Assembly (NCBI GenBank): GCA_024239035.1
Contig: JANBVK010000001.1
Location: 107,010 to 171,009, forward strand
Direction of reading: 5' to 3'
Length of the DNA stretch: 64,000 nucleotides
From: Patescibacteria group bacterium
GTDB taxonomy: Bacteria > Patescibacteriota > Minisyncoccia > UBA6257 > GWB1-50-10
Shown here: one piece after another, positions 817 to 62,551 of the stretch
Position numbering within the stretch: position 1 is the first letter of the stretch
Layout: the number at the start of each line of letters is the position of its first letter
The notes under the pieces: generated by a model
Database searches by the model: none
What the model was told of the DNA's origin: nothing
The model's input: only the letters and a program-made list of their open reading frames with translations
Made by a program: the position numbers and the translations under genes

Positions 817-2052
817 TTATCTTTCTAATTCTTCAAAACTCTTAAAAGCCCATGAGCCTTCTCCACAATTCGGTTCTATATTTTCTCCTACCTTTAATGT
901 CGTCGGACTAGTTAATTGCACAAGAATGCTGATGGGCGATGGTTTTTTATGTAGGTCCGTCGATTTTTGATCGAGTAAATTATCGAAACAATAAATATTT
1001 TCATCTTTAATGTCTTTAAAGTCTCTATTAACTAATCCAGAATTTGTTGGTGTAAAGTAATAAACTGCCGGTTCTAAAGTTTCCAGGAATCCAATAGCCA
1101 TGGCTCCTATTGTTGAGTTCTGAAAATCGTGCATCAAAGAAAGTTCTGGTCTTATAAATTTACTTTTAGAATTTTTAACAAACCATGTTCCTTGAGCGGT
1201 CCCTTTTATATCCTGATTAACTTCCCCACAGATGGGGTTTGTTGTTCTTCTGTCTTCGCGTTCTCCTAATAAAGATTTGAGTTGTATTTTAAGATCAGCA
1301 TTAAAATAATCCAAAGGACACACAAGATACCTTTGCCATTTTTGCCATCTGGAGGTATTTGCATAGTCTAATTCTTTTTCTCTGTAATCTGACAAACTGA
1401 AATCCAAGGGGCGCTGCCAAAATAATTTTCCCATAGTTCCCAATTGTTCCCCTGCAGAAACTTTAATGCTTAACTTTTTTGTACAAGTATGCCCTTTAAA
1501 TCTGCCAAATTCGTAATCCTCACAACGCTCATATGGAGGTTTTATTTCTAATTTTAATTTATCTGAAACAGTTGACAGGTGCAGGAAAAAACCTTCAACT
1601 TCTTTGCATGGAGAAAAATGAAGCGAATAGTCTTTGGAATTTGGAACTGGTTTTGCCATATCGTCCTCAATTATTTCTGTGATCCACATGTCTCCCGGAG
1701 AATAAAAAGCTCTTTCTATTGGTGCATCCTCTTCGGTTCTATAGGTATAAAGGTAAACGTGGTCAGTTGGATAGATATGTTCCGGGGCTTCACCAATAAA
1801 GCCTAAAGGTCTTATGTACCATAAGTCATCAAAGTTAATTGGTGTTTCTGTAAACAAATCTTTTCTACCCTCACAAGAAGGAATATCCAAAGATGTTTTT
1901 TGAAATTGGTCTTCCCTTACGTTTTCTTGAAAATCACTAATTTCACCAGAACCTTCATATTTTTTAAACGAGTTTGAGTTATTAAACAAAAAAAATCCTC
2001 CGACTGCTAAAATTAAAACTACTATAATTCCAATTATCAGCCCTTTTTTCAT
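817..2052 (-). CDS. Membrane-anchored hypothetical extracytoplasmic protein (N-terminal TM anchor, divergent ectodomain)
   Basis: 411-aa ORF with an N-terminal hydrophobic anchor MKKGLIIGIIVVLILAVGGFFLF. Tandem paralog of the upstream partial gene. 4-nt overlap with the next gene. Confidence 0.6.
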   Translation of the reverse strand: MKKGLIIGIIVVLILAVGGFFLFNNSNSFKKYEGSGEISDFQENVREDQFQKTSLDIPSCEGRKDLFTETPINFDDLWYIRPLGFIGEAPEHIYPTDHVYLYTYRTEEDAPIERAFYSPGDMWITEIIEDDMAKPVPNSKDYSLHFSPCKEVEGFFLHLSTVSDKLKLEIKPPYERCEDYEFGRFKGHTCTKKLSIKVSAGEQLGTMGKLFWQRPLDFSLSDYREKELDYANTSRWQKWQRYLVCPLDYFNADLKIQLKSLLGEREDRRTTNPICGEVNQDIKGTAQGTWFVKNSKSKFIRPELSLMHDFQNSTIGAMAIGFLETLEPAVYYFTPTNSGLVNRDFKDIKDENIYCFDNLLDQKSTDLHKKPSPISILVQLTSPTTLKVGENIEPNCGEGSWAFKSFEELER

Positions 2053-8252: not shown

Positions 8253-8977
8253 GGTCTGCGTTTCCGCAACCGAATTTTCTTAACTCGCTCAAATAGTGGC
8301 TGATAAAGGTCTTCTCTGGGGTCAATATATAATTCCTGACGCGACGGCGCCCGATCAGTAAAGACGACCGGCGCCTCTTTGATAATGGTAAGTGGCTGCC
8401 GCTCGGCCCCCTCCCCCATAACCAAAATAGCAGCAGTAGCCAAACTGTCAGCCACGTCGGTCTTCGTTCGCTTCATAGTGCGGCCAAAAATATCCTTACT
8501 GCCGCGATAATCACGGATTCCTTCAAAACCGGCATACCCGAGCGCCACACCCATAATACTGGAACATAAAGGATATAAATGGCTATCAGTAATTAATACT
8601 CCTAACTTTTTTACGCCGTAATGTTTCTGCAGTTTTTTACGAATTATCCGAGCCGTCCGAAAACTATCTTTTGGCAACAACGCTAACTTACCGTCTGCAT
8701 TCGACCGATCAATGCCGGCAGACCTCATAACCACACCATCTTTAATGGTAAGCCATGCATATTTTGTCCTCATCACCCACTGGCTCTCTTTTTTAATTAA
8801 CTGTTCTTTAGTTTTTTTATTGATAATTCGTCGTGTTCTCCCCTCGGAAAAAGACACTATTTTTGACGTAATAACCAAAATGGATTTTTCAGACAACCGC
8901 GGTACCTTTCCGACAATAAAATCAAAAAGATCCTCCCCTTCTCTAAAAATCCGAGTTTTAATTGGTTGCACATTCAT
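8249..8977 (-). CDS. F420-0:gamma-glutamyl ligase (CofE)-like family protein
   Basis: ITSKIVSFSEGR and LITDSHLYP segments resemble the CofE/F420-ligase fold. Probable ATG at 8975-8977 preceded by AGGAG; the ORF-track start (8995) is a GTG. Confidence 0.45.
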   Translation of the reverse strand: MNVQPIKTRIFREGEDLFDFIVGKVPRLSEKSILVITSKIVSFSEGRTRRIINKKTKEQLIKKESQWVMRTKYAWLTIKDGVVMRSAGIDRSNADGKLALLPKDSFRTARIIRKKLQKHYGVKKLGVLITDSHLYPLCSSIMGVALGYAGFEGIRDYRGSKDIFGRTMKRTKTDVADSLATAAILVMGEGAERQPLTIIKEAPVVFTDRAPSRQELYIDPREDLYQPLFERVKKIRLRKRRP

Positions 8978-8988
8978 GGATGCTCCTA

Positions 8989-9056
8989 CCCCCACACCTA
9001 ATGAGGATTGCGAAGCTCACGCTTCGTAAGAAGCAAATCCTCATTAGGTGTGGGGG
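8989..9056. promoter_or_regulatory. Long perfect inverted repeat (21-bp arms CCCCCACACCTAATGAGGATT ... AATCCTCATTAGGTGTGGGGG, 26-nt loop with an inner hairpin) just upstream of the CofE-like start and its AGGAG
   Basis: Seen directly in the sequence. Sits between the upstream terminator and the start codon. Confidence 0.5.
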
Positions 9057-9094
9057 GTAATTACTCGATAATAACGAAAAAGGTTTCTTTATGC

Positions 9095-9137
9095 AAAACA
9101 AAAAGGGTGCTTGAGACCTGAATCTCAAACACCCCCC
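9095..9137 (-). terminator. Rho-independent terminator of gene 9161..9625 (hairpin GGGTGCTTGAGA...TCTCAAACACCC followed by a T-run on the minus strand)
   Basis: GC-rich hairpin plus a TTTTTGTTTT run in the minus orientation, 25 nt after the stop. Confidence 0.6.
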
Positions 9138-9160
9138 TTTACTACACCCTTCGTGAAATC

Positions 9161-9625
9161 CTAACCGCTGGTCAAGGCAACCTGATTTTCTGCTTCGATA
9201 CGCTTCGCAACGCTTTTAACGAAAGCCCTGCGCTTCTTTTCATCACCGTGACTATCACCGAGCCTCAACTGGGCAACCTCTTCGCTCCACTGACGAGCCA
9301 CCTCATCCCCTCCAAGTTGGCGCTCAAGGCGTCCCAAGGGAACCAGGACTTTGTCAACAAGAAGATGAGAGAGACTGATGATCGTCATCGTGGAAAGACG
9401 TTCCGGGTCAATCCCAGAAATCAGATCGTAAAACTGGCTTCCAAAACTTCCGTTCTGGAGACACATAAGGCGGTCCACTCCGTTTGCACGTGCCGTTTGT
9501 CGAACCCGTTCGGGTGTCAGAGCAGAGATGACTTCACCCAAATCGCGAATTCCTTGCCTGATCGTCCCGAGTTTCGGAAACTGCTCCTTCTGCGATCCGC
9601 CTTTTCCAGCCCTTTCGTTTGTCAT
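9161..9625 (-). CDS. Hypothetical protein encoded in a locally GC-rich segment (possible foreign origin)
   Basis: 154-aa ORF with protein-like composition and its own terminator. The overlapping + strand ORF 9248..9691 looks like antisense noise. Local GC is clearly above the window average. Confidence 0.45.
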   Translation of the reverse strand: MTNERAGKGGSQKEQFPKLGTIRQGIRDLGEVISALTPERVRQTARANGVDRLMCLQNGSFGSQFYDLISGIDPERLSTMTIISLSHLLVDKVLVPLGRLERQLGGDEVARQWSEEVAQLRLGDSHGDEKKRRAFVKSVAKRIEAENQVALTSG

Positions 9626-9783
9626 AACCCCTCGCTGTGGTGGTTAGGTAAAAGGGTATATACAACGTACCACATTCAGCTTAACTTATAGTAATTAAGC
9701 CGTCAACAAAGCCGTATAGAGACAAAACCGGAATGTGGTAAAATAAAGATTAAAGGTCGCAGTATAATTATCTTTATTTAAAC

Positions 9784-10065
9784 ATGGCAAACACGGTAAT
9801 AAAAAAAGACGGAACTAAGAAGCCTTTTGATAGTGAGAAAATCAGAAAATCAATCGAGTCTGCCGCCGAAGAAGCGGGTCTGGAAAAAGAAAGAATTAGC
9901 GAAATCGTAAACCAGGTTGCAAATGAAACAATGCAATTGGCGGAAGGAAAAGAAGAAATTGCCACCAGCGAGCTTAAAGAAAAAATCCTAAGCACCCTTG
10001 ATACGGTTGAGCCGTCAGTCTCGGCGGCGTGGCGGGAATATGACAGCAAACGCAAAGCCCAGTAA
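9784..10065 (+). CDS. Stand-alone ATP-cone domain protein
   Basis: VIKKDGTKKPFDSEKIRKSIESA matches the ATP-cone signature of the NrdR/NrdD N-terminus. No zinc ribbon. 93 aa. Confidence 0.55.
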   Translation: MANTVIKKDGTKKPFDSEKIRKSIESAAEEAGLEKERISEIVNQVANETMQLAEGKEEIATSELKEKILSTLDTVEPSVSAAWREYDSKRKAQ

Positions 10066-13790: not shown

Positions 13791-15587
13791 ATGAGGTTTA
13801 AAATCAAAAATATAAGTATTTTCTGGCAGTTCGTATTGCTGGGGGTAATTATATTTACCATCATTGGAATTTTCCTCTCCAGTCTCATCGCCCCGGCGCT
13901 TATCCGCCTTACTCTACAACAACGGGAGCTGACCTCGGTAGTTTTTGCTAACCGGTTGGCTGCTGAATTTCTTTTACCAGAAGATTTTGTAAGGCCTGCA
14001 GAAGGAGAAAGCCGGGAACGCTTTGAACTTTTCGCGAACAACCTGCAAATTCCAGGGTTATTTCGAGTCAAAATCTGGAACCCTGAAGGGATTATTGTGT
14101 ATTCAGATATAGAAGAACTTATTGGGAAAAGGTTTCCATTACGCTCCGAACTTCAAAACGCGTTTAATCTGAAAACAGAAGTTAATTTAATAAAATTCGA
14201 TCCAAACGAACCGCAATATTTCTATGAGCTGTCCTTTGGAGAAGGCATAGAGGCCTACGCACCCCTTACCTTTGGTGCTTCCCCCGAAGTGATGGGAGTA
14301 GTAGGAACCTATGCTCGATCCGGATTCTTGCAGGAACAAATTAACGAAATTAAAAATCGTTTTGTACTAAGTATCGGACTATCTTTGGCTTTAATGTTTG
14401 CCGCACTTTCGTTTATCGTCTGGCGGGCTTCACGTACGGTTGACACCCAACGAAAAGAACTCTCAAAATATGCCACCGGCCTTGAAGAAATGGTAAAAGA
14501 AAGAACCGCCGAACTAGAAGAAGAAAGAACCAAACTCTCACAAATCACTCAACATATGAAAACCGGCGTCATTCTCTTAGATAAACAAGGAAAGGTTGTT
14601 TTTGTAAATAGGGAGGTTAAAGCTATGTTGTCGCTTAAAGATAAGGGAGAAGATAAAGCGCTTGAGATGCTCTATGCTAAATTCCCAAAATTAAATCTCA
14701 AAGAACTTATTTTAAAGTGCCTCTCGGGCCAACCCTCCAACATATCTGAAGCTGAGTCGGACGAGAAAATATTTGAAATATTATCTGGCTGCTTGCCTGA
14801 GCCTGGTAAAGGTTTTTTTGGCCACCTTATTTGGATACGAGACATTACTGAAGAAAAAGAACTTGACCGCGCGAAGACCGAATTCGTCGCCATTGCTTCG
14901 CACCAACTTAGAACCCCTCTCTCTACCATCAACTGGTACACGGAAATGCTCCTCAGCGGTGATAGGGGAAAAATAACAAAAGATCAGGAAACTTATTTGA
15001 AAGAAATCTACCACGGTAGCAAAAGAATGGTTGATTTGATTAATTCTCTCCTAAACGTTTCACGGATTGAATTAGGTACTTTTTCTGTTGAGCCAAAGTC
15101 GGTAAAACTTATAGAAATTGCCGACAGTGTAATAGGTGAACTTTTTCCAAAAATTAAAAACAAAAAATTAAAAATAGAAAAGGAGTATGATAAAGACCTG
15201 CCAATTATGAACGCCGATCCAAAACTTATGAGAATGGTCCTTCAAAACTTACTCGCAAACTCGGTTAACTATACTCCTGAAGGAGGGAGAATAAGTTTAA
15301 CAATTAAAAGACAGGGATCCGATGTATTTATCAAGGTTAGAGATACCGGCTATGGCATCCCCAAGGACCAGCAATCAAAAATTTTTGATAAACTATTCCG
15401 AGCCGACAACGTGATAGAAAAACAAACTGATGGCACGGGTTTGGGTCTATATACAGTAAAAGCGGTGGTGGAGCAATCCGGGGGCAAAATTCGGTTTGAA
15501 TCGGAAGAAAACAAAGGTACAACCTTCTACGTTACAATCCCTCTAAGCGGGATGATAAAGAAAGAAGGAGCCAAAAGACTCACTTGA
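13791..15587 (+). CDS. Sensor histidine kinase (two N-terminal TM segments, HisKA and HATPase_c)
   Basis: H-box FVAIASHQLRTPLSTI. G-boxes DTGYGIP and GTGLGLYTVKAVVEQSGG. Confidence 0.85.
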   Translation: MRFKIKNISIFWQFVLLGVIIFTIIGIFLSSLIAPALIRLTLQQRELTSVVFANRLAAEFLLPEDFVRPAEGESRERFELFANNLQIPGLFRVKIWNPEGIIVYSDIEELIGKRFPLRSELQNAFNLKTEVNLIKFDPNEPQYFYELSFGEGIEAYAPLTFGASPEVMGVVGTYARSGFLQEQINEIKNRFVLSIGLSLALMFAALSFIVWRASRTVDTQRKELSKYATGLEEMVKERTAELEEERTKLSQITQHMKTGVILLDKQGKVVFVNREVKAMLSLKDKGEDKALEMLYAKFPKLNLKELILKCLSGQPSNISEAESDEKIFEILSGCLPEPGKGFFGHLIWIRDITEEKELDRAKTEFVAIASHQLRTPLSTINWYTEMLLSGDRGKITKDQETYLKEIYHGSKRMVDLINSLLNVSRIELGTFSVEPKSVKLIEIADSVIGELFPKIKNKKLKIEKEYDKDLPIMNADPKLMRMVLQNLLANSVNYTPEGGRISLTIKRQGSDVFIKVRDTGYGIPKDQQSKIFDKLFRADNVIEKQTDGTGLGLYTVKAVVEQSGGKIRFESEENKGTTFYVTIPLSGMIKKEGAKRLT

Positions 15588-15635
15588 CCGTTAAACTTCT
15601 AGACTAGTAAAAACTAATTGTTGTATAATTAAACC

Positions 15636-16067
15636 ATGGCAAATCTAGACAAGTCGGCACAAAAAAATAAAACAATTCTAGTTGTAGAGGACGAACGATC
15701 CTTACTTGATGTAGTTAAGGAAAAACTTGAAATTGATGGTTTCAATGTTATAACAGCGCGGTCAGTAGAAGAGGCATTACCTTATTTAGAAGACCCAGAA
15801 AAAATAAGTGTAATCTGGTTAGACCACTACCTTATAGGTAAAGAAAGCGGCTTGGATTTGGTCGCTAGGCTAAAAAGCGGTGATTCAAAATGGAAAAATA
15901 TCCCCATTTTCGTCGTTTCCAATACTGCTAGTAGTAATAATATACGGACATATATAAAATTAGGTGCCTACAAATATTATACTAAAGCTGATTATAGTCT
16001 AAAATCCATTATTAAAGACATTAAAGAATCTATAAAGGAACGGGAACAACAACCAAAACCTAACTGA
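15636..16067 (+). CDS. Response-regulator receiver-domain protein (stand-alone REC)
   Basis: ILVVEDERSLLDVV...VIWLDHYL receiver signature. No output domain. Confidence 0.7.
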   Translation: MANLDKSAQKNKTILVVEDERSLLDVVKEKLEIDGFNVITARSVEEALPYLEDPEKISVIWLDHYLIGKESGLDLVARLKSGDSKWKNIPIFVVSNTASSNNIRTYIKLGAYKYYTKADYSLKSIIKDIKESIKEREQQPKPN

Positions 16068-16079
16068 ATTTCCTAAAGT

Positions 16080-16481
16080 ATGCCCGATAAACCCAAGAAA
16101 ATCCTTATTGTTGAGGACGAAATACCAATGCTAAAGGCATTGGCTGATAAATTTTCCCAGAGTGGATTTGAGACATTTAAAGCAAAAAACGGTGCGGAGG
16201 GTTTAGCTACCGCCCTAAAAGAACACCCTGATTTAATCCTACTTGATCTTATTATGCCAAAAATGGACGGGACGAAAGTGATGGAAAAATTACGGGAAGA
16301 CTCCTGGGGGAAAGACGTTCCAATCATCGTCCTTACTAACCTGAATTTGGAAGAAATGGAAATATTGGAGAAAAGTAAAATACCGGATAAGGTGAAAAAA
16401 GGTAAACCACTTCAGTATTTAGTAAAAACCGATATGAAACTCGAAGACATCTTAGAAAAAGTCAAAAAAGCTCTCGGTTAA
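16080..16481 (+). CDS. Response-regulator receiver-domain protein (CheY-like, stand-alone)
   Basis: KILIVEDEIPMLKAL...DLILLDLIMPKMDG...K receiver motifs. Confidence 0.8.
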   Translation: MPDKPKKILIVEDEIPMLKALADKFSQSGFETFKAKNGAEGLATALKEHPDLILLDLIMPKMDGTKVMEKLREDSWGKDVPIIVLTNLNLEEMEILEKSKIPDKVKKGKPLQYLVKTDMKLEDILEKVKKALG

Positions 16482-16484
16482 AAG

Positions 16485-16519
16485 AAAACACACCCCAGTC
16501 GGGGTGTGTTTTCTTTTGT
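16485..16519. terminator. Rho-independent terminator (ACACACCCC-AGTC-GGGGTGTGT plus TTTTCTTTTGT), possibly bidirectional (A-run on the other side)
   Basis: Directly follows the stop of 16080..16481 and abuts the 3' end of tRNA-Gly on the opposite strand. Confidence 0.75.
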
Positions 16520-16590
16520 GTGCGGGATACGGGAATCGAACCCGTGTCTCAACCTTGGGAAGGTCGCATTCTACCACTAAACTAATCCCG
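16520..16590 (-). tRNA. tRNA-Gly (anticodon CCC), no encoded CCA
   Basis: Minus-strand cloverleaf GCGGGAT...ATCCCGC acceptor, T-arm ACGGG-TTCGATT-CCCGT, anticodon loop UUCCCAA. Confidence 0.8.
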
Positions 16591-16659
16591 CCTTCGCCAG
16601 CCATAGCTGGCTTCGGCGGGCAAGCCCGCTGAAGCATGCGACGGCTGGATATATATTAT

Positions 16660-16974
16660 TTATTGTGATGTACTTGTGACGTTCGGAACAATTATTATTA
16701 ACCCCTCCCCCTCTTCACGATAATTAAATTGGGACTTCAGTTCCTTGAGAAGATTCTCCGGATTCTGGAAATATTCTATCCGAGAAGTGAGCGTCCTATT
16801 CTCTTCCTCAAGTGATTTTAAAACTTCACTTAATTCTGCCGCTTCTTTTCCTAATAAATTTTTCTCCTGCACCAGATTATAAACCCCCCACCCCAAGAGA
16901 GCAATAACTATAATTAAAACCAAAACCTTCCATAACGGCATCACCTCCATTATAACGTCCTTTCGGATTACCAT
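16660..16974 (-). CDS. Septum-formation initiator family protein (FtsB/DivIC-like: TM plus coiled coil)
   Basis: Single TM WKVLVLIIVIALLGWGVY followed by heptad-rich LSEVLKSLEEENRTLTSRIEYFQN. True start may be the internal Met around 16941. Confidence 0.5.
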   Translation of the reverse strand: MVIRKDVIMEVMPLWKVLVLIIVIALLGWGVYNLVQEKNLLGKEAAELSEVLKSLEEENRTLTSRIEYFQNPENLLKELKSQFNYREEGEGLIIIVPNVTSTSQ

Positions 16975-16986
16975 CCAACCAAAAAA

Positions 16987-17169
16987 GTAGTTGATAATCT
17001 TTTCTGTAATATGCCGGAGCGAAGCTATAAATTAACGAATGAAAAACAGAAAAGTAGAAAAACAGCGCTGTTTGAGCGAAACGAGTTCGCTGTTTTTCGT
17101 CAAGCTTTTCTGTTTTGAGGAGTATAATTTATCTGAGTAAAGGCGATTGCAGAGAAGATTATCAACTAC
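16987..17169. repeat. Repeat element family, copy A (about 183 bp, 20-bp terminal inverted repeats, core bidirectional terminator hairpin). 3' TIR overlaps the lepA stop codon.
   Basis: 5' arm GTAGTTGATAATCTTTTCTG and 3' arm CAGAGAAGATTATCAACTAC. Core AAAAACAGCGCTGTTTGAGCGAAACGAGTTCGCTGTTTTT. More than 85% identical to the copies at 48800 and 50523. Confidence 0.75.
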
Positions 17170-18959
17170 TTCTTCAACAGTTCCCTAAACACATCCGGCG
17201 TAATCTTCGCTTGAGAACGCTCCTTTAAACGTTTCTTGCCCTTCTTCTGCTTCTGCCATAGTTTCATTTTCCTCGTCCTGTCCCCGCCGTAAAGATGACC
17301 GGTAACGTTCTTTTTTAAAGCCTGAATGTCCTCTCGCGCAATTATATTCGCCCCCACCGCTGCCTGAATCGGCTGTGCAAACTGCTGTCGCGGTAAAAGT
17401 TTCTTAAGACGCTTAATCATCTCCCGCCCTTCTTGTTCATAAGTGCTTTTAGGAAAAAACCGGCTAAGCCCCGGTACCAATATCCCAGAAATCAGCACAT
17501 CAACCCGCAGGACATCCGATTTTTTATAGCCGGCTAGCTCATAGCTAAAAGAGGCATACCCCTCTGTTGCAGACTTTAATTTATCATCAAAATCGCTTAT
17601 AAGTTCCGCTAAAGGCATATCCGCATCTAACTTAACCCTGTCCTGTAATGTTTCAGTCATAATATTACTCAACCGAAAAAGCTTCTGGAGCGGAAAAAGA
17701 CTATTAATGTGGTTTTCGGGAACAATTATCTCAATCCTCACCATCGGTTCCCAAATCTCATCAAAATTTTCGGGTAAATCTTCGGGTTTTATAATTTCAA
17801 TGTCAGTACCTTTAACTTTCACTCGATACACCACCGACGGAAACGTATTCATAATACTGATCCCGAACTCCCGCCTCAAACGTTCCGCAGTAATCTCAAA
17901 ATGGAGACGGCCTAAAAATCCAATTTTAAACCCCCTGCCCAGCACTTCATTTTGGTCAGGATCAACGGTCAAAGACGAATCATTAAGTTTAAGTTTTTGT
18001 AACCCGCGTTTTAAAAGTTCATGGTCATTGCTGTCTTCCGGATAAAAAGATACAAACACCACCGGCTTCGGCTCCTTATAACCCGTAAGGGGCTGATAAC
18101 TAGTCGCTGGTTGCTGGTTACTGGGGACTATAATAGTGTCCCCTATTTTAATCTTTTCCGGATCCTTGACGCCGGTTGCAATATAACCGATCTCCCCGGG
18201 CTTAATTTCGAGTACCGACTTTAGCTCGGGAATAAAATAACCCAATTCCTTAATCTTAGAACCAGTCTTAGTCGCCAAGAGGTATATGTTATCATCACTC
18301 TTAATTTTCCCGCTAAAAACTCTAACAGACGCAACGACACCCTTATGGTCGTCGTAGAAAGAATCAAAAATGAGAGCACGAGTGTGATTGCTTTCGTCTT
18401 TGGGTGACGGTATGCAGCGAACAACTCCTTCAAGTAATTCTTTAACGCCTTCTCCTGTCTTCCCCGAAACAAGAAAAATATCTTTCTGCGATACCCCTAG
18501 AAGTTGTGCAACCTCACGAACAGCTCTCTGTAGTCGATTGTCGCTGCGGTCCTCGAATAAGTCTATCTTACTTACCGCGCCGATAATTTTTAACCCTGCC
18601 GCTTTCGCTGCTCGAAAGTTCGCCAGAGTCTGCGCCTGAATCCCCTGCCCGGCATCAACGAGTAAAATCGCTCCCTCCACCGCTACAAGAGCCCGGGAAA
18701 CCTCGTAAGAGAAATCAGAATGGCCGGGAGTGTCAATAAGATTTAGGTCATAAGTTTCAGCTTTCAAGTTATAACTCATCCGCACGGGAGCCATCTTAAT
18801 CGTAATCCCCCGCTCCCGCTCAAGCTCAAGCTGATCCAAGTACTGCGCTTTCATCCGCCTCTCCGGAACCGTCCCCGTAATCTCTAAAAACCTATCCGCA
18901 AGCGTGGATTTACCGTGATCGATGTGAGCGATTATACAGAAATTCCTTATGTTCTTCAT
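17166..18959 (-). CDS. lepA: Translation elongation factor 4 (LepA/EF4)
   Basis: NFCIIAHIDHGKSTLADR G1 motif, DTPGH, and full-length (597 aa) LepA-like sequence including the LepA-specific C-terminal domain. Confidence 0.95.
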   Translation of the reverse strand: MKNIRNFCIIAHIDHGKSTLADRFLEITGTVPERRMKAQYLDQLELERERGITIKMAPVRMSYNLKAETYDLNLIDTPGHSDFSYEVSRALVAVEGAILLVDAGQGIQAQTLANFRAAKAAGLKIIGAVSKIDLFEDRSDNRLQRAVREVAQLLGVSQKDIFLVSGKTGEGVKELLEGVVRCIPSPKDESNHTRALIFDSFYDDHKGVVASVRVFSGKIKSDDNIYLLATKTGSKIKELGYFIPELKSVLEIKPGEIGYIATGVKDPEKIKIGDTIIVPSNQQPATSYQPLTGYKEPKPVVFVSFYPEDSNDHELLKRGLQKLKLNDSSLTVDPDQNEVLGRGFKIGFLGRLHFEITAERLRREFGISIMNTFPSVVYRVKVKGTDIEIIKPEDLPENFDEIWEPMVRIEIIVPENHINSLFPLQKLFRLSNIMTETLQDRVKLDADMPLAELISDFDDKLKSATEGYASFSYELAGYKKSDVLRVDVLISGILVPGLSRFFPKSTYEQEGREMIKRLKKLLPRQQFAQPIQAAVGANIIAREDIQALKKNVTGHLYGGDRTRKMKLWQKQKKGKKRLKERSQAKITPDVFRELLKK

Positions 18960-19549: not shown

Positions 19550-21337
19550 TTACACTACCTCCGCCTGATAACACTGCTCGCAATAAACTATCTCCTCCCT
19601 ATCTGGTGCGTATGACGTTTCAAACTCGTTGGGACACCTGCCTTCCAGGTGATGATTATGCTTCGTGGTGTTTTTGTACACCTTGTAATCACACACGCAT
19701 TGACGATGAAAAAGCTGAGGTCGATTTCTCCACGCAACTCTATCAAAGTGTCTACAATTGAAACAAAGCCGAGGTAACGGCAAATTCAGTTGGCGATAAA
19801 ATTGAAGTTCTTGGAAAGTAATACGAAAGGCCGTTGCACAATTTTCTCCACATTGCTCAGGATGATTATTATTTTCATCATGCTGGCATTGAATGACTTC
19901 TTTTAAGATGTCATCACCCAACTTTTGAATTTGATCGGGAAGTTCATCTGAGGTTTTAGTTATCGAATATGCCCTCTCTTTTGGTCTACGCCAGTTGTAA
20001 CCCTGCGCTTTTGCTTCTTTTTCCGTAAGCGGGAAATATTCATGTGCCTGTGTTTCACTGTATCCAAATGCACTCATATCTGGCGGGAAAAATTCACCGT
20101 ATTTATACACCCGTCCTTTTGCATCAACATAAGGCATTTTGTTCATATGTTTAATGATTTTCGGAACCATCGCTCTATAGTCTTCTTTCGAATATTGCCT
20201 ATTTAAAATGCAGTATTGCTTGCTCTTCAATGCTACACAGCCAAACAAATTGTTTGATTGACGACAATTTACTGTATAGCGAGATTCATTTGCCGCAAAT
20301 GATTCAGCTGTAAAAAATGTGTTATAGATACCGTGGCCGGTGGCAATAATATCATAGGTAAGCTCTGTACCTTCGGAAGATGTAACATCCATGCCGTCTT
20401 TATTTGGACCATAAATCACGCTTTGGCAATGAGCCATATTTTGAGCAGTGCCCACAAAAAAACAATTACGAAGCTCTGTTGCATTATAGAGATAATCACC
20501 AGTACAATTTTTTGCTTGTACGCTATGCTGATATTTGACGGGGTGTTTGAGCCATACTTCCATTGCTTGTCCTCGAGCACGCTCAATACCAGACCAAGAA
20601 TCAAGTCTCATTTCTGCAAGCTTTTTTTGATATTCCTCCTTGCCGTAAGATTCATTGAAAATATGATAGCTCTTATTTCGCAACCCTGAACAACCAAAAC
20701 AACTATCACATCCGACACAATCCTGACTGAACCATACGTCGTTACACGAAGTGCAGCTTCGTGAGAAGAAGGTTTTATACGAATCATTGGTGTTGATACA
20801 GTAGTAGCAAAGCTCACATCCTTTACAGTTGACCATATCTATACACTGCTTACTCCTCAGTAATGTGACACTGTAAGCGCTATCCTCTAGGTATCCTGCA
20901 TCAAAACACAAGTAGCAGTTTTTTGCCCATGCTGCGATACTGTAATCACTGTTTGTTTTTTCCATAGACCACATAGGAGCCCATGGAACTTTGTTAAACA
21001 AGTCCCTGATTTGTTCAAAGAATGGTTTTGAGAAATCATACTCCATTCCATAATCCATGGGGTCCCATGCATCACTCTCCCAGTATTCGTAATCATAAAC
21101 TGGCATTGGAGCATCGGGAGGAATTAAGGTAAATATTTTCTTTCCTGTGGCATCACAAGTACGTTCGTAAAGGTATCGCATGTTGCGAAAAGACATCCGA
21201 CGCATTGCTCGGCATTTCCAACAAAACGTCGGCACCGGCACTTTTATCTTCTCATAAAACGCAAAATCTTGAGCCTCAACCTCAAATGAGTTCTTACAGT
21301 TCTGACATAGTCGTTTTTCGGCTTGGAAATCAGACAT
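19550..21337 (-). CDS. Cys-rich multi-CxxC zinc-ribbon protein, paralog 1 of a 4-5 member family (cytoplasmic, 595 aa)
   Basis: N-terminal CQNCKNSF...CWKCR and C-terminal RCPNEF...YCEQCYQAEVV zinc-ribbon-like motifs. Internal CKGCELCYYC and DCVGCDSCFGC clusters. No signal peptide. Confidence 0.8.
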   Translation of the reverse strand: MSDFQAEKRLCQNCKNSFEVEAQDFAFYEKIKVPVPTFCWKCRAMRRMSFRNMRYLYERTCDATGKKIFTLIPPDAPMPVYDYEYWESDAWDPMDYGMEYDFSKPFFEQIRDLFNKVPWAPMWSMEKTNSDYSIAAWAKNCYLCFDAGYLEDSAYSVTLLRSKQCIDMVNCKGCELCYYCINTNDSYKTFFSRSCTSCNDVWFSQDCVGCDSCFGCSGLRNKSYHIFNESYGKEEYQKKLAEMRLDSWSGIERARGQAMEVWLKHPVKYQHSVQAKNCTGDYLYNATELRNCFFVGTAQNMAHCQSVIYGPNKDGMDVTSSEGTELTYDIIATGHGIYNTFFTAESFAANESRYTVNCRQSNNLFGCVALKSKQYCILNRQYSKEDYRAMVPKIIKHMNKMPYVDAKGRVYKYGEFFPPDMSAFGYSETQAHEYFPLTEKEAKAQGYNWRRPKERAYSITKTSDELPDQIQKLGDDILKEVIQCQHDENNNHPEQCGENCATAFRITFQELQFYRQLNLPLPRLCFNCRHFDRVAWRNRPQLFHRQCVCDYKVYKNTTKHNHHLEGRCPNEFETSYAPDREEIVYCEQCYQAEVV

Positions 21338-21502: not shown

Positions 21503-23290
21503 TCATACTACCTCCGCCTGATAACATTGTTCGCAGTAAACAATCTCCTTCCTCTCCGGAGCGTATGATGTCTCAAACTCGTTAGGGCATCTTCCTTCCA
21601 AGTGGTGGGAATGTTTTGTAGTGTTTTTGTATTTTGTAGCTTGCTCTGAGCCTGTCGAAGAGTCACACACGCACTGGCGGTGCCAAAGGTTTATAGGATT
21701 TCTTCTTCTGAAACGTGCATAATACCGGCAGTTGGGACATAGCCTAGGGAGAGGGATATTCATTTTTCTATAAAAATTGAGTTCATCAGAAACAATTCGG
21801 AAAGCCGTTACACACCTCTCTCCACATTTGCCCTGATGTGCACAACTAATAACTTCTTTCACAATACTGTCATCAACGTCTCTTATATGGTCAGGAAGTT
21901 GCTCTGCAGAGACAGTGATCTGATAAGAAGGTTTTTCGAGGTCACGCCAATTAAATCCTTGAGCAAGAGCGCGTTCTTTATCCAGCGGAAAGTAATCATA
22001 GGCCGGCGTTTCATTATAGGGGAAGGGAGACAGTTCTGTTGGAAAGAATTCTCCGTGAGCATATATCTTTCCCTTTTTATCTTTATATGACGCCTCGTTC
22101 AAGTGGTCTATAATTTGAAGAACAAGCTCCTCATATTTTTCTTTAGTATATTCTTTGTTTAAAATGCAATACTCCTTCTTGCGAAGTCCGATACACCCAA
22201 ATAAATCATGGCATCCGTTTTTACATATGTCACAATAGGTAATATTTCGCACTTCTGGCCAGGCATCCGAAGATAATTTCACATTGTAGGCATTCACGCC
22301 CATGGTGTTCACCTCATAGTTCAATTCCATCACGCAACACCCGTTGTTGATATCCATGGAATCCTTCGCTTTATTTACAAAAAGGCAATATCGGCAGTTT
22401 TCAAGTTCAGCCCCATTGAAACAGTGATAACAATCTTTAGAGTATGAAATCGTGTTTCCAACGACATTTGTTACGTTTTTAGTATAGGCATGTTTGTGCA
22501 ATGCTTTCTTTCTCATTGCTTCAAATTTAGCGGCATACGTTGAAAAATTCTTATACGAACCCGTATCAATGTCTTTCATTTTTTGCTTATAGTCCTCTTT
22601 GGTACATTGCTTATTTTCAAACACGTGAGACTTGTTCCAAATATTGCTGCTTAAAAAGCAATCTTGGGAACCCCTGGCATCGAAACAGAACGAAAGCCCC
22701 GTAGAACTCGCACAGTTTTCAACAAATATAAGTTGTGACACCTCGAGGCATTCGATACATTCATAACAATACTCTCCCCGGAGCACTATGAAACAATCAA
22801 CCAAGTTTTTAGAGTTCAAAATTCTGTAGCTATACATCGAGTCCTCGTTGTCCGAGCCTGAAAAAATGAGATAGCAATTTTTGCAATTTGCAATCTGGTT
22901 TGCGTATTCACAATTCACGCATTTATCAACTTGGAGCGCTACTCGAGGTACTTTATTCTGCAGCTCCTTAAATTGTGTAAAGAACGGTTTATTAAAATTG
23001 TATTCTCTTCCATATTGCGTTCCATCCCACTTATCTGAATACCAGCACTCTCGGCAATATACGGGGAAAGTCACATCCTGAGGATACATAGCAATAATAT
23101 CCTTGCGACAAAGGTCACATATTCGTTTATGAAGGCTTCTCTCATTTCGCCAAGAAAGTCTGCGTTGCAGCCGGCACGGAGGACACCACGTAGGCGCCGG
23201 CACTTTTATCTTCTCATAAAACGCAAAATCATCCGGTTCGATGGTAAACTGGTTTTTGCAGTTTTGACACTGTCTGGCCTCTTGTGTCAT
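21503..23290 (-). CDS. Cys-rich multi-CxxC zinc-ribbon protein, paralog 2
   Basis: Same architecture and termini as paralog 1 (CQNCKNQF...CPPCR at the N-terminus, YCEQCYQAEVV at the C-terminus). 35-bp nucleotide-identical patch with paralog 1 (GCCGGCACTTTTATCTTCTCATAAAACGCAAAATC). Confidence 0.8.
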   Translation of the reverse strand: MTQEARQCQNCKNQFTIEPDDFAFYEKIKVPAPTWCPPCRLQRRLSWRNERSLHKRICDLCRKDIIAMYPQDVTFPVYCRECWYSDKWDGTQYGREYNFNKPFFTQFKELQNKVPRVALQVDKCVNCEYANQIANCKNCYLIFSGSDNEDSMYSYRILNSKNLVDCFIVLRGEYCYECIECLEVSQLIFVENCASSTGLSFCFDARGSQDCFLSSNIWNKSHVFENKQCTKEDYKQKMKDIDTGSYKNFSTYAAKFEAMRKKALHKHAYTKNVTNVVGNTISYSKDCYHCFNGAELENCRYCLFVNKAKDSMDINNGCCVMELNYEVNTMGVNAYNVKLSSDAWPEVRNITYCDICKNGCHDLFGCIGLRKKEYCILNKEYTKEKYEELVLQIIDHLNEASYKDKKGKIYAHGEFFPTELSPFPYNETPAYDYFPLDKERALAQGFNWRDLEKPSYQITVSAEQLPDHIRDVDDSIVKEVISCAHQGKCGERCVTAFRIVSDELNFYRKMNIPLPRLCPNCRYYARFRRRNPINLWHRQCVCDSSTGSEQATKYKNTTKHSHHLEGRCPNEFETSYAPERKEIVYCEQCYQAEVV

Positions 23291-36331: not shown

Positions 36332-36376
36332 AAACTTTTTCTCCCCCCTAATTTTACCACCTCTTTCACTTAAAAC

Positions 36377-50639: not shown

Positions 50640-50669
50640 CCTTATTACACCACATCCCACAAACGTAAT

Positions 50670-57535: not shown

Positions 57536-58554
57536 CCCAACTTCAAATTGGAAAAATTATCTAAAAGATGACTGTATTTATCGAAATTCTCAACAACAAC
57601 ACCTGTCCCCCTCACAACACAGGTTAAGGGATCGTCTACCAATTTAACTTCAACGCCGGTCTCTTTCTGCAACATCTGATCAACACCCCTCAACATACTG
57701 CCTCCTCCGCACATATAAACTCCGTTTTTATGGACGTCACCAACCAACTCAGGAGGAGAAGCTTCAATTAAATCTTTCAACCCCTCGTGAATAAGTCTTA
57801 GGGGACGACCGAGCCATAGACGCACTTGAGTGTCTTTAACAACAATCTCCCGAGGCAAACCACTTACCACGTCTCTCCCTCTTATCTGCACCTCCAAGCG
57901 TTCTGATTGAGGAATTGCCGCGCCGACAGCGATTTTTATGTCTTCGGCCGTTGGCTCACCAATACTTAACTTAAGTTCATCTCTTACTGACCTTATAATT
58001 TCACTATTCAGGAAATCACCGGCAACCTCAAGTCGTTTTGAGACAACTATCCCATTCATGGAAATAATTGCCATATCAGTCGTGCCGGCACCAATGTCAA
58101 CAACTAAATATGCAGTCGGCTGATGAATATCAAGTTGACTGCCTAGGGCAGCAACAAGCGGCTGCTCGACTAAGTGCACCTCATTTGCACCCGACTCCTT
58201 CAATAAATCTTCTACTGACTTCCTCTCAACCTCCGTTAGATTAGTAGGAACACTTACAATCATTCTCGTAGACCAAGACCACGGAATATGACCATCTTTT
58301 AAAAAGTGTTGAGTCATCTCACGAGCCATATCAAAATCGGCAATAACTCCGTGAATTATAGGCCTCGAAACCGTAACGTGAGCCGGCGTCCGACTCCGCA
58401 TTGTTTTTGCGTGATCACCATAAGCAACAATCCTGTTGGTCCGGTTATTAAAAGCTATAACAGAAGGTTCATTAACCACTACTCCGTTCTTGTTCAAATA
58501 AATCTGAGTCGTATCAGTTCCCAAATCAATGCCGATATGTTTTTTTAAAATCAT
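57532..58554 (-). CDS. mreB: Rod shape-determining protein MreB (actin homolog)
   Basis: IGIDLGT...VVDIGAGTTD...MCGGGSML actin-fold ATPase motifs. Confidence 0.9.
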   Translation of the reverse strand: MILKKHIGIDLGTDTTQIYLNKNGVVVNEPSVIAFNNRTNRIVAYGDHAKTMRSRTPAHVTVSRPIIHGVIADFDMAREMTQHFLKDGHIPWSWSTRMIVSVPTNLTEVERKSVEDLLKESGANEVHLVEQPLVAALGSQLDIHQPTAYLVVDIGAGTTDMAIISMNGIVVSKRLEVAGDFLNSEIIRSVRDELKLSIGEPTAEDIKIAVGAAIPQSERLEVQIRGRDVVSGLPREIVVKDTQVRLWLGRPLRLIHEGLKDLIEASPPELVGDVHKNGVYMCGGGSMLRGVDQMLQKETGVEVKLVDDPLTCVVRGTGVVVENFDKYSHLLDNFSNLKLG

Positions 58555-59810
58555 GATAAAGTTTTTATTATTTCTTCTAATTTCATCAACTTGGTCTCTT
58601 TCTCGTTCCTGTGCTTAACCTCTAGTTTTTCCTGAACTATTGTTTTCTCACTCACCACCAATCTCACGGGCAGACCAATTAGATCGGCGTCGTAGAATTT
58701 TTCCCCTGCATGAACCTGGGCCCGATCATCATAAAGCACTTCTATTCCCGCCTTAGCCAGTTTATTATAAGCAATATCTGCTTGCTTTTTCAATGATGAT
58801 GTCATCTCCCCTACTGCCAGAAGGTGAACTTTGAGGGGAGCAACCGACTCCGGCCAAATAATTCCCTGCTCGTCGTGATGAATCTCGGAAACGGTCCCCA
58901 TCACTCGTCCTAAACCAATACCGTACGAACCCATCACTACATATGCTTTCTTGCCGTCTTTGTTTACAAACTGTAAATTAAAGGCTTCGGAATATTTCGT
59001 ACCAAGCGGAAAGATGTTGCCCACTTCAATAGTTTTTATTTTATCTAGAACTCCTTTTTGACATTCGGGGCACTGGTCTCCTCCTTTGTTTTTAGAAATC
59101 TCTTTATTCTCTGCAAAATTACAGAGGCGGCATAAAACAATCTCATCCTCACCCGCAGGAGACTCCACTTGAAATTCGTGCGTATTCGAAAATGTAAAAT
59201 CCCCGCCGGCGGCAGTGGTATAGATTGATTTTAAGCCGCATCGTTTGAAAATTTTTTCATAGGCGCCTTTTACCTCATTATAGTAACGAAACATATCTTC
59301 TAGAGAAACATGGAAACTGTACAAATCTTTCATTATAAACTCCTTTCCCCGCAGAAGCCCCGATCGAGCCCGCGGCTCATTCCTGAACTTTGACTGGATT
59401 TGATACGCCGCAAACGGCAGGTCTTGATAAGAACTTATGTATTTAGAAACGATATCGGTAAGCACCTCCTCATGTGTCCACCCGAGAACAAAACCGGGGG
59501 TTTTTTCTTCCTTACCTTTCACCTCAAATCCTATCCCAACGTCCCATCGCCCGCTCTTATCCCAATATTTCTTCTCAACGAGCGCGGGCATTAACATCTC
59601 TTGCCCGCCTATAGCGTTCATCTCCTCCCGGATAATAGCCGAAATCTTCCTAATTACCTTCCAACCCAAGGGGAGGTATGAATACACGCCGCCCGAATTT
59701 TTATAAACAAAGCCTCCTCTCTCAAGGAGCTTCGCATTAACACTAACTTCATCCTTAGGGTCCTCCTTATATGTTCTAGAAAAAAGCTCCGACTGCCGCA
59801 TAAACCCCAT
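58551..59810 (-). CDS. proS: Prolyl-tRNA synthetase (short form lacking the editing domain)
   Basis: Class II aaRS motifs, C-terminal anticodon-binding domain, 419 aa. Confidence 0.85.
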   Translation of the reverse strand: MGFMRQSELFSRTYKEDPKDEVSVNAKLLERGGFVYKNSGGVYSYLPLGWKVIRKISAIIREEMNAIGGQEMLMPALVEKKYWDKSGRWDVGIGFEVKGKEEKTPGFVLGWTHEEVLTDIVSKYISSYQDLPFAAYQIQSKFRNEPRARSGLLRGKEFIMKDLYSFHVSLEDMFRYYNEVKGAYEKIFKRCGLKSIYTTAAGGDFTFSNTHEFQVESPAGEDEIVLCRLCNFAENKEISKNKGGDQCPECQKGVLDKIKTIEVGNIFPLGTKYSEAFNLQFVNKDGKKAYVVMGSYGIGLGRVMGTVSEIHHDEQGIIWPESVAPLKVHLLAVGEMTSSLKKQADIAYNKLAKAGIEVLYDDRAQVHAGEKFYDADLIGLPVRLVVSEKTIVQEKLEVKHRNEKETKLMKLEEIIKTLS

Positions 59811-59831: not shown

Positions 59832-60800
59832 CTACAACTCTTCTTTTTCCAGACAGCGGGCCATCGGTAGAAATTTTTTCACCAGGAAGAGTGCGTAGCT
59901 TTTCGGTACATACTTGATGGGTACATGATACAAATCAACCCAGACATGACTGTAAATTGCAAAGAGTATAGATTGTTTTAAATAGTGCCGCTCTTTTTTT
60001 GATAGCTTTCTTTTTTTTAAATATCCCTCTAGAAATTTTTTAGTTAACGCTCTATCCAACCGTCCTTTACTCTCACAATTCCACATAATTGTTTTTCCCA
60101 CATCGAACACAAAAGAGTCCACATACGTATTGCCGAAATCAATCACCCCAGTTAATTTCTCTCCAATAAAAAGTTCGTTGTCGAGTTTGATGTCCACGTG
60201 GATTGGGCCCCGAGGAAGCCATTTGGGCAGACGATTATTCAGAACTCCCCGTTTTACCTCTTCAACAACTGCCTTTAGCTGGGGATGAGTTTGTCTTTTC
60301 ACATAACGATACATTAATGCCATTATTTTAGGGTTTAGGTCGTAAAATCTCCGCCTGCCCCGCATTGTCTTTTTGAACTTACTGCCCAACTTATGAAATT
60401 CTCCAACAAATTCACCAAGCTGATACGCCATCTTTGGTGTAATTCTTTTTGGTTGCCGACCGGGCAAAAATCGATACACGCTTACTGCGTATCCTTTGAA
60501 ATTCTCAAGATATTTTCGGCGTTTTGATGGAATATAATGAGGAACCGGTAAACGTTTCAGGTGTGTAAGAAAATTTATCTCGTGCAGGAGAGCGATTCTC
60601 GGCACGATCTTCATATCCGCAACAACGACTTTCTTGCTGGACAAATTGTGCTTTGCAACGATAAATTTCCCCTTCGGGGTTGTAATTGCTACCTTTGGCG
60701 TCTGATACCCCTGCCGGAAATACGTAATGTTCCCTATCTTACCAAGCTCAAATAAGTCTGTAATCTGCTGATATTCCCTTTTAGAAAAAAATTTAAGCAT
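59832..60800 (-). CDS. APH/CotS/homoserine-kinase-II family protein-kinase-like protein, translationally coupled to the upstream Cys-rich paralog
   Basis: Brenner motif IHVDIKLDN and DFGNT. AUG (MLKFF) 2 nt after the paralog 3 stop with GGAGG 10 nt upstream. The ORF-track start at 60836 overlaps the upstream gene. Confidence 0.65.
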   Translation of the reverse strand: MLKFFSKREYQQITDLFELGKIGNITYFRQGYQTPKVAITTPKGKFIVAKHNLSSKKVVVADMKIVPRIALLHEINFLTHLKRLPVPHYIPSKRRKYLENFKGYAVSVYRFLPGRQPKRITPKMAYQLGEFVGEFHKLGSKFKKTMRGRRRFYDLNPKIMALMYRYVKRQTHPQLKAVVEEVKRGVLNNRLPKWLPRGPIHVDIKLDNELFIGEKLTGVIDFGNTYVDSFVFDVGKTIMWNCESKGRLDRALTKKFLEGYLKKRKLSKKERHYLKQSILFAIYSHVWVDLYHVPIKYVPKSYALFLVKKFLPMARCLEKEEL

Positions 60801-60802
60801 TT

Positions 60803-62551
60803 CTACACCACCTCCGCCTGATAACACTGCTCGCAATATACAGTCTCCGGTCTATCAGGAGAATACGAAGACTGCATAGACTTTCCACATTTCACGCATT
60901 TTCTCTCATACAACTCCAGCACGATAGAGCCGAACTTTTTTCTTTTCTCTGCCAACCGTACACTGTAATGTTTCTGGGGTAAGGGAAGATTATATCTCCT
61001 GTAAAACTCTAATTCTGCCTTTATATAGCGGGATTTCTTATTATTTTCGCTGTCAAAGACAACTTTATTCAAAATATCGTCTTTCACCTCACGAATATCC
61101 TTAGGAAGATCTTTTGAATCAACGATTTCTCCTTCCACCTCATACAAAGTCTCCTGGATATCTTCTGTCCGATATCCATACCTCCTCGCCGTCTCAACGT
61201 CATCATATCCTTTATAGGAGGTAGCAATAGAAATATTGTAGGGAAACGGTGAAAGTTTGGGTGGGAAAAATTCTCCATATTCACCTTTCTCTAACATTTT
61301 TGCCTTTACTTTATCTACCATCTCCCAATAGTCTTTCTCAGCGTACTGCTTATTGAGAATACAGAACGATTTATTTTTAAGTCCGATGCAACCAAAACAG
61401 TCGTGGCAGTTAATACAGAGATCACAATATTCTATCTCACGGCAATCATCAACATCAATGGAAAATTTAATCCCGTAGTTATTGTCACCTGCCCAAGATT
61501 CATAACTAAACTCCGTACCTACACCGCCAACAATATCGTATGAATCTCTGGTTTTCGTAACTCCAATGGAATATGCCACGTTTTCCCCACCAATAATATA
61601 AAAACAAGCGTAACAATTTTTGGAATCCTTAATATAATCACCAAAACTTGCGACCGCTCGGTCGTTGTGAGTTTCTTTATAAAACGCCTTCTTTTTCAAT
61701 TCGGTGAACTTTCCTTTTAAAGAATTTAAAGATTCTCGGTCGCCAAGATTTAACGCTCGTATCTTCTCCTCATAAGCCTTTTTAGTCAACGGTTCATTAA
61801 AAAAGTGGTACTTTTTGTGACGCAAATTCACACAACCAAAACAGTATTCGCAATCTCGACAATCGAAAAGGAAGTAGGAATAGAGACAATGCTTCGAGTG
61901 CTCCACAAAAAAACAATTGAAGAGATCAGAACTTTCGAAACAATCGTAGCAGGTATCAGAGTTTCTCAGTGCAAAACCATCAAAGCAACTTCGCGAATCA
62001 ATCAAAGAAATACTATACGCACTATCTTCAGATTGGTAAGAATCAAAAATTAAATAGCAGTTTTTCAGTCGAGTCGAGTTATTGGTATAATCACTCCTAA
62101 TGCTTGTACTATCAATGTGGAGATTGGGCCGAGGAACGTTCCGCATAAGCTCTCCAAATTGATCAAAGAATCCCCGGCTATCGGTGTAGGCGCTGGCATA
62201 ATCGTTAGGATCCCATTCCTCGCCAAACCACATCTGATGTTCATAAACTTTGTATGGTGTGGTAGGGGGGTACTGAGAAATAATCGACTTTTTAGAAAAA
62301 GATGATACTACCTTAAAAAGATTGTAAGAATTCGTAAAAGCAATTTTTCTCCGTATACGTTCCTTGGGAGATAACGTTGGCAGAGGCACCCGCATTTTCT
62401 TGTAAAACTCAATATCTTCCGGACGAACGTAAAATTTCTCACCAGAAAATCGGCAAGTCCTCCACTGACCTCCCTTCTCATCTAATTCAAGTTTGGAAAA
62501 GTATTCATCCAGCGCTTTATCAAATTGTGGAGTTTTGCTCACTTGATTCAT
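60803..62551 (-). CDS. Cys-rich multi-CxxC zinc-ribbon protein, paralog 3 (N-terminal ribbon Cys lost)
   Basis: Same conserved blocks (KNCYLIFDS, CRDCEYCFGC, CDLCINCHDCFGC, GEFFPPKLSPFPYN, LEFYRRYNLPLP) and YCEQCYQAEVV terminus. Confidence 0.8.
   Translation of the reverse strand: MNQVSKTPQFDKALDEYFSKLELDEKGGQWRTCRFSGEKFYVRPEDIEFYKKMRVPLPTLSPKERIRRKIAFTNSYNLFKVVSSFSKKSIISQYPPTTPYKVYEHQMWFGEEWDPNDYASAYTDSRGFFDQFGELMRNVPRPNLHIDSTSIRSDYTNNSTRLKNCYLIFDSYQSEDSAYSISLIDSRSCFDGFALRNSDTCYDCFESSDLFNCFFVEHSKHCLYSYFLFDCRDCEYCFGCVNLRHKKYHFFNEPLTKKAYEEKIRALNLGDRESLNSLKGKFTELKKKAFYKETHNDRAVASFGDYIKDSKNCYACFYIIGGENVAYSIGVTKTRDSYDIVGGVGTEFSYESWAGDNNYGIKFSIDVDDCREIEYCDLCINCHDCFGCIGLKNKSFCILNKQYAEKDYWEMVDKVKAKMLEKGEYGEFFPPKLSPFPYNISIATSYKGYDDVETARRYGYRTEDIQETLYEVEGEIVDSKDLPKDIREVKDDILNKVVFDSENNKKSRYIKAELEFYRRYNLPLPQKHYSVRLAEKRKKFGSIVLELYERKCVKCGKSMQSSYSPDRPETVYCEQCYQAEVV

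Follow-up and report, generated by a model that had tools for sequence, protein, structure and literature searches.

Similar gene ends in diverged paralogs of a Patescibacteria bacterium: probably protein constraint on a zinc-finger tail, with occasional short gene conversion

Four related genes in a 64,000-nucleotide stretch of a Patescibacteria genome (assembly GCA_024239035.1, contig JANBVK010000001.1, positions 107,010 to 171,009; this whole stretch is called the window, and positions are counted from its first letter) encode widely diverged proteins and finish on almost the same 36 nucleotides, which raises the question of what has kept these gene ends so alike. All four lie on the minus strand. 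Paralog 1 (p1, 19550..21337) and its tandem neighbor p2 (21503..23290), set apart by a 165-base spacer, both encode 595 amino acids, and p3 (60803..62551) encodes 582; p1 to p3 are complete open reading frames (ORFs) with the corresponding translations, and p4 (62584..>64000) has a frame that is open to base 64000, its 5' end being cut by the window edge. The C-terminus VYCEQCYQAEVV, with which p1 ends, is common to p1, p2, p3, and p4. A fifth paralog, p5 (locus L001, 10001-11782; 593 amino acids, tail VVYCEQCYQSEVV), lies on the same 729,382-base contig outside the window. Protein identity among the four window paralogs is 34.8-44.7%, with p1 and p2 at 44.7%, which agrees with the ~35-45% given for the remainder of the genes by an earlier inspection of the letters alone (the sequence-only reading). 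That reading took the shared ends as a sign of selection or homogenization acting on DNA or RNA beyond the needs of the protein. We consider it likely that protein constraint accounts for most of the nucleotide similarity in the block, joined by occasional short gene conversion.

The last 12 codons of p1 occupy 19553..19588, and the equivalent blocks are at 21506-21541 in p2, 60806-60841 in p3, and 62587-62622 in p4, again all on the minus strand. Over these last 36 sense bases any two of the four paralogs are identical at 30-34 positions (83-94%); the strings quoted by the sequence-only reading were correct, and they do encode the same C-terminus, but the block is not identical across the paralogs. 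Nor does identity extend to the stop codon, as had been claimed, because p1 to p4 end on TAA, TGA, TAG, and TGA, respectively. Twenty-eight of the 36 columns are invariant, 24 of them being first or second codon positions set by identical residues. Third positions are invariant in four of the 12 codons, and synonymous differences occur in eight of the 12 codon columns, so the statement that synonymous positions share in the identity does not hold in general. Put another way, 24 of the 36 bases are dictated by the amino acids, most of which (Y, C, E, Q) have two codons, and 10 of the 12 positions carry either two-fold degenerate codons or valine or alanine with ordinary variation. A 21-mer from the block, CTGATAACACTGCTCGCAATA, occurs four times in the window at three or fewer mismatches versus zero times in 100 shuffles. 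The p1 and p3 tails share an exact run of 29 bases (TATTGCGAGCAGTGTTATCAGGCGGAGGT; p1 19557..19585, p3 60810-60838, minus strand), a possible short conversion tract that is statistically borderline, and the exact run in the tails of p1 and p2 is 20 bases.

The protein encoded by the block explains much of this. The last ~35 residues of p3 and p4 give sub-threshold matches to PF23477 (zf_Tbcl_2, a probable treble-clef zinc finger), at 21.8 and 23.8 bits against a curated cut-off of 27, and to TIGR04272 (CxxC-x17-CxxC), at 19.0 and 21.5 bits against a curated cut-off of 36; in p3 these matches cover residues 546-579. Neither model matched p1, p2, or p5. A C-x2-C-x17-C-x2-C spacing can be read in the translations as CVKC-x17-CEQC in p3 and CAKC-x17-CEQC in p4, whereas the first knuckle of p1 and p2 is CxC (CVC) plus a long insert, and CxxC-x17-CxxC is thus found in two of the four paralogs. 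Because of the p3 and p4 matches and this spacing, we read the 36-base block as the second zinc knuckle and six-residue tail of a C-terminal treble-clef zinc finger. Small Methanosarcina mazei proteins carrying this type of domain bind zinc (PMC12704099), and the terminal finger of the paralogs is predicted to do the same. The likeness to TIGR04272/PF23477 fingers includes the C-terminal location, the 17-residue separation of the two CxxC knuckles in p3 and p4, and a conserved aromatic residue both before and after the second knuckle; unlike those fingers, the paralog finger caps a beta-solenoid protein of ~590 amino acids and not a small protein. The structure of p1 was modeled with AlphaFold2 (predicted local distance difference test 88, predicted template modeling score 0.90). 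The overall architecture starts with a zinc ribbon at the N-terminus, continues through a beta-solenoid core rich in cysteine and C-terminal zinc-ribbon modules, and is closed by the finger.

The same tail is found well beyond this genome. Database searches gave more than 5,795 homologues, all of them unnamed proteins, and every match with a named source is from Patescibacteria; literature searches turned up no account of this family. It is therefore a large, Patescibacteria-specific, and uncharacterized family, and its members stand in tandem arrays; among 80 loci taken from species-representative genomes, a 20 kb locus can hold as many as nine copies. One member (L023; CAZMJP010000035.1, 1,831 bases) comes from a short contig whose bin is labeled "uncultured Gammaproteobacteria", a placement that is probably a binning error and not evidence of the family outside Patescibacteria. 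The tail is the most conserved part of the family, with the consensus [IV][VI]YCExCY[QN]xE[VI]x-COOH, and all 236 complete members (loci L003-L082 plus the window) end exactly six residues past the last cysteine. Among these 236, the conservation is 100% for C, 98% for Y(-6), 97% for E(-3), 93% for Y(-11), and 90% for E(-9). The p1/p3 29-mer recurs at no more than one mismatch in the unrelated loci L051 and L068, and L051 and L062 contain an exact copy of its 17-mer core, so strings of this kind can arise from protein constraint alone.

At synonymous sites the four window tails do stand out, though modestly. Forty-six of 72 pairwise codon comparisons are identical versus 31.7 expected from family codon usage (simulation, P ~0.003) and 34.9 expected from amino-acid-matched sites in the same genes, and the tail ranks 1 of 77 blocks in the window paralogs; the P value is optimistic, however, because the block was chosen by eye for its similarity, after the fact. 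Resampling columns within the four paralogs also gave a small P, but the pools were too small, and the codon-usage simulation was used instead. Family-wide there is no such excess. Over 45 genomes with at least two copies, same-genome tails had the same codon at 1,909 identical-residue sites versus 1,888 expected from body sites matched for genome and residue, a ratio of 1.01 (0.97-1.06, bootstrap over genomes), and a general synonymous conservation of the tail was rejected on this basis. The ratio of observed to expected is also flat along the gene, at 0.91-1.10. The sequence-only reading had named uniform synonymous divergence along the genes as the outcome that would tell against it, and across the family uniformity is what was found. 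With a knuckle tail that is near-invariant family-wide, a tail ratio of 1.01, and the 29-mer in unrelated genomes, its proposal that the 3' block as a whole reflects more than protein constraint is not upheld. Mild position-specific codon preferences do exist across the family (TGC at -10, GAG at -9, CAG at -8, and TGT at -7). Separately, the last sense codon strongly favors an A ending, GTA being used in 53% of cases versus 22% in the gene body, and GCA in 50% versus 24%.

Codon-match states were permuted among identical-residue sites within each amino-acid class, and the longest exact run was compared for each pair. Among 444 same-genome pairs, 27 reached P<=0.01 versus 4.4 expected, and 12 reached P<=0.0025 versus 1.1 expected, with significant runs up to 98 bases long. 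The control, 1,332 different-genome pairs matched for body identity, gave 13 pairs at P<=0.01 versus 13.3 expected and is thus calibrated; its longest run was 28 bases, and the locations were scattered. The 27 significant same-genome runs are placed differently: 17 start in profile columns 4-29, which is the N-terminal zinc ribbon, and six lie in the last ~70 columns. Adjacent tandem pairs were significant in 13.2% of cases versus 2.7% for non-adjacent pairs (Fisher P = 5e-5). Tail runs of at least 29 bases were seen in 1.0% of same-genome versus 0.03% of different-genome pairs, a ~30-fold difference, and runs crossing the stop codon into the spacer in 7/490 versus 18/27,240. At L007 (4711-6451 versus 8206-9985) and L003 (9988-11725 versus 16078-17845), exact runs, 30-32 bases long, extend past the stop codon into the spacer and as far as the start of the next gene; the junction between tandem copies can therefore be homogenized as a unit. 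We conclude that neighboring paralogs in this family do undergo short-tract gene conversion, confined to the stretches where homology is greatest.

In the window itself, the clearest case is at the other end of the gene. A 34-base exact run shared by p1 (21235..21268) and p2 (23197-23230), on the minus strand, encodes DFAFYEKIKVP in the N-terminal zinc ribbon; it lies within the family-wide 5' hotspot, gave permutation P values of 0.002 and 0.005 in two tests, and probably marks a short tract converted between these two neighbors. The sequence-only reading had listed this patch as 35 bp; the patch is real, but it is 34 bases long, and its coordinates are those given here. The 29-base tail run of p1 and p3 had P values of 0.01 or 0.025, depending on the test, before correction for multiple tests, and by a GENECONV-type criterion p1/p3 is the sole borderline pair at the 3' tail, the longest runs in four other pairs being not significant. 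Recombination tests on the four paralogs had been proposed as a check; the permutation test on exact runs comes out significant for the 5' patch and borderline at best for the tail. Gene conversion or homogenization, as first suggested, is borne out by the family-wide excess, by its location at both of the ends that had been flagged, and by the p1/p2 patch, but not for the 3' block as a whole; it is a better account of the p1/p2 patch than of the four-way identity of the tails.

A further signal comes from the residues of the tail that are free to vary. The x positions vary freely among orthologues of p1 that are 60-68% identical, whereas they are identical in window paralogs that are 35-45% identical. 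For the four variable tail positions (-8, -5, -4, and -1), within-genome matching exceeds between-genome matching, at matched body identity, by 0.11, 0.10, 0.09, and 0.21; the same difference in body columns has a mean of 0.01 and a standard deviation of 0.045. Quartets of genes were then scored, 190 of them from 114 genome pairs and restricted to those in which orthology was clear from the gene body. Informative body sites followed the orthologue, genome, and cross patterns at 9885, 1182, and 960 sites, respectively, 82% thus following the orthologue, but at the four variable tail positions the corresponding counts were 36, 68, and 12. The fraction showing the genome pattern is 0.59 for the tail positions (bootstrap 0.30-0.82) versus 0.098 for the body, and leaving out the window's genome did not change the split (36, 67, and 12). 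The genome-tracking signal is limited to the first ~20 and last ~7 columns, the same regions that hold the clusters of exact runs. Codon identity at concordant sites is raised in the tail (58 versus 46.8) and at the N-terminus (117 versus 102.6), and an interior control gave 751 versus 745.5. Removing the quartets with shared tail runs, as a way to split conversion from selection, is circular, as shared residues themselves lengthen runs, and this approach was not used. We infer that conversion and not selection causes the concordance of tail residues, this being the most economical reason for it.

The process we propose is that paralogs of one genome would occasionally exchange tracts of ~24-98 bases by conversion, for the most part with an adjacent copy and almost exclusively in the 5' zinc ribbon or the 3' zinc finger, where conservation is highest. 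Conversion of this kind would have produced the 34-base p1/p2 patch, and it may have produced the 29-base p1/p3 tail run; the residue concordance would reflect short conversions that recurred, mostly long ago, and have since lost most of their synonymous trace. Several points weigh against this account. Averaged over the family, the tails show no synonymous excess, and tail conversion must therefore be rare or old. The evidence for tail conversion in the window is one borderline pair, picked afterwards, with four of the six pairs unremarkable; stop codons and downstream flanks differ among the window paralogs; and in most pairs conversion would have to run into the very last codons with no downstream homology to anchor it. 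Protein-level selection toward one shared partner could give the same residue pattern with no exchange of DNA at all. In addition, the loci were gathered with a pattern that included the tail, although this bias is expected to oppose and not favor a same-genome signal. The nearest homologue of p1 among 5.8 billion proteins is 68% identical, which leaves no sister strain with which to date the tracts.

As a phenomenon, this is of an already known kind; the protein family is uncharacterized. Gene conversion drives concerted evolution in bacteria, for example of the duplicated tuf genes and the Neisseria opa genes. The paralogs resemble such families, as recognized by GENECONV-type tests, in their long identical same-genome fragments, the enrichment among adjacent copies, and the genome-tracking residues. 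They differ in that the tracts are very short (24-98 bases) and at the two conserved ends only, in that the rest of each gene is a stable orthologous lineage with 35-45% identity to its neighbors, and in that the mean synonymous signal is near nil.

Two other explanations invoke the protein and no exchange of DNA. It is conceivable, but somewhat unlikely, that no DNA-level process acted on the window's 3' block, and that protein constraint and chance sufficed, the most similar block having been picked by eye. The tail ratio of 1.01, the recurrence of the 29-mer and of the exact 17-mer in the loci named above, the different stop codons, and a P for p1/p3 of just 0.01-0.025 before multiple-test correction all agree with this, as do eight different-genome pairs that also have tail runs of at least 29 bases. 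However, the tail block ranks first of 77 in this genome at P ~0.003, runs of that length are ~30 times commoner in same-genome pairs, the p1/p2 5' patch is significant, and the family-wide excess of long same-genome runs is clear. The alternative that selection has tuned both protein ends of a genome's paralogs to one genome-specific interactor, and so produced the genome-tracking residues, is in our judgment doubtful. The candidates for such a partner are the coupling-protein-like ATPase that often neighbors the genes, a protein that binds the C-terminus, or head-to-tail contacts between the paralogs themselves. Consistent with it, genome-tracking residues occur only at the two protein ends, where mean synonymous identity is near background, and the protein end is fixed at six residues past the last cysteine; end-to-end stacking of the beta-solenoid core is conceivable in principle. 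A P-loop ATPase of ~510 amino acids, with matches to TrwB_AAD_bind, DUF87, TraG-D_C, and T4SS-DNA_transf and thus resembling TrwB/VirD4/HerA, is the commonest neighbor in the arrays of other genomes: it is beside or inside the arrays in 25 of 72 genomes, usually less than 200 bases away and on the same strand. Loci with it include L003, L011, L013, L017, L027 (for example, at 15096-16631), L030, L036, and L040, and ATPase-bearing loci average 4.0 family copies versus 2.4 elsewhere. Other frequent neighbors are a membrane protein of ~470 amino acids with no Pfam match (18 genomes) and CutA1 (14 genomes). The window, however, contains no homologue of either the ATPase or the ~470 amino acid membrane protein, its one CutA1-like ORF is not adjacent to the paralogs, and the interactor is hypothetical; moreover, neither the exact nucleotide tracts at the same ends nor the raised codon identity is expected from protein selection alone. 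A bolder form, which we regard as quite improbable, is that the ends (the fixed-length ...CY[QN]xE[VI]x-COOH tail plus the N-terminal zinc ribbon) are a genome-specific recognition code read by the shared partner, to which every paralog of the genome would have to stay matched, the candidates being the TrwB/VirD4-like ATPase, found with the arrays in about one third of genomes, or the paralogs stacking into a beta-solenoid filament. Coupling proteins read C-terminal recognition signals on type IV secretion substrates. The paralogs resemble these substrates by context alone, in a fixed-length C-terminal tail with an invariant glutamate and hydrophobic end residues and in the VirD4/TrwB-like ATPase as the commonest array neighbor in other genomes; unlike them, the window copies have no adjoining ATPase, no other secretion components were identified, and folded proteins stabilized by zinc would be unlikely translocation substrates. 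Patescibacteria live as episymbionts, and if the recognition code were true, the family would supply them with a repertoire of cargo or assembly subunits found in no other group.

The third alternative is that the tail carries a functional nucleotide element, whether a Shine-Dalgarno sequence, an mRNA structure, or a recombination site for cassette shuffling, and this we consider very improbable. GCGGAGGT is present in p1, p2, and p3, and in p3 a GGAGG (60811..60815, minus strand) stands 10 bases upstream of the ATG (60800-60798) of an APH-family kinase gene (59832..60800; Pfam APH match) that starts two bases past the p3 stop codon. The suggestion of an embedded Shine-Dalgarno sequence therefore fits p3 alone, where the GGAGG is likely the ribosome-binding site of the APH-family gene, as judged from its position, and of that gene only. 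In p1, p2, and p4, which are followed by spacers of 55, 165, and 32 bases, respectively, there is no start codon in the 5-13-base range; of 224 family tails, 26 contain GGAGG, and there is no preference for GAG at -3 (35% versus 37% in the body). A Shine-Dalgarno reading of the block was thus rejected. An embedded structure fares no better: RNAalifold on five 3' ends gave a weak consensus fold of -7.4 kcal/mol with one compensatory pair and no convincing common structure, and Rfam has no match at the tails, its matches in the window being three tRNAs elsewhere. As for a dedicated recombination substrate, each gene body belongs to a stable orthologous lineage, every copy is a full-length ORF, and no cassette shuffling was seen. 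Conserved ends do flank a variable core in antigenic-variation cassette systems such as Anaplasma msp2/p44 and Neisseria pilE/pilS, and the paralogs are superficially similar in that their many copies have diverged yet are best conserved at the 5' and 3' ends, where exchange at the DNA level is also seen. However, there are no silent or truncated donors, each copy carries a start and a stop codon of its own, the bodies show no shuffling, and the translations have no visible N-terminal hydrophobic signal sequence; with that lack and the many zinc-binding cysteines, the protein is probably cytoplasmic. The cassette reading was rejected because all copies are complete genes and body sites follow orthology (9885 versus 1182 and 960, as above).

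The genes next to the paralogs and the other repeats of the window are recorded here for completeness. Downstream of p3, the APH-family kinase gene is followed by a prolyl-tRNA synthetase-like gene at 58551..59810, and p5 comes directly after a Glu/Gln-tRNA synthetase-like gene. An intergenic repeat of ~129 bases, 78-91% identical among its copies, is found at 16998-17126, 48813-48941, and 50535-50663, with a partial copy at 33780-33832; it holds the hairpin AAAAACAGCGCTGTTTGAGCGAAACGAGTTCGCTGTTTTT and constitutes a non-coding repeat family. A 49-base repeat (3666-3714 and 36371-36419, 86% identical) is terminator-like and centers on a GC-rich hairpin, AACGGCTCAACGAC...GTCGTTGAGCCGTT. Finally, a 143-base direct repeat, 81% identical, occupies 673-815 and 1910-2052, that is, the 3' end of the ORF at 817..2052 and the region just upstream of that ORF, which suggests a second pair of adjacent related sequences.

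A zinc-knuckle motif that is near-invariant and built largely of two-fold degenerate codons yields just this kind of match, striking to the eye, at the ends of diverged paralogs, and a hidden DNA or RNA signal is not required. What the family as a whole adds is that, in an abundant, unnamed, and highly expanded group of Patescibacteria proteins, concerted evolution within genomes affects both ends, which is also where the short conversion tracts cluster. It is a clean natural example of conversion confined to islands of homology in otherwise ancient paralogs, and the protein termini, together with the frequent coupling-protein-like ATPase neighbor, provide starting points for the function of the family.

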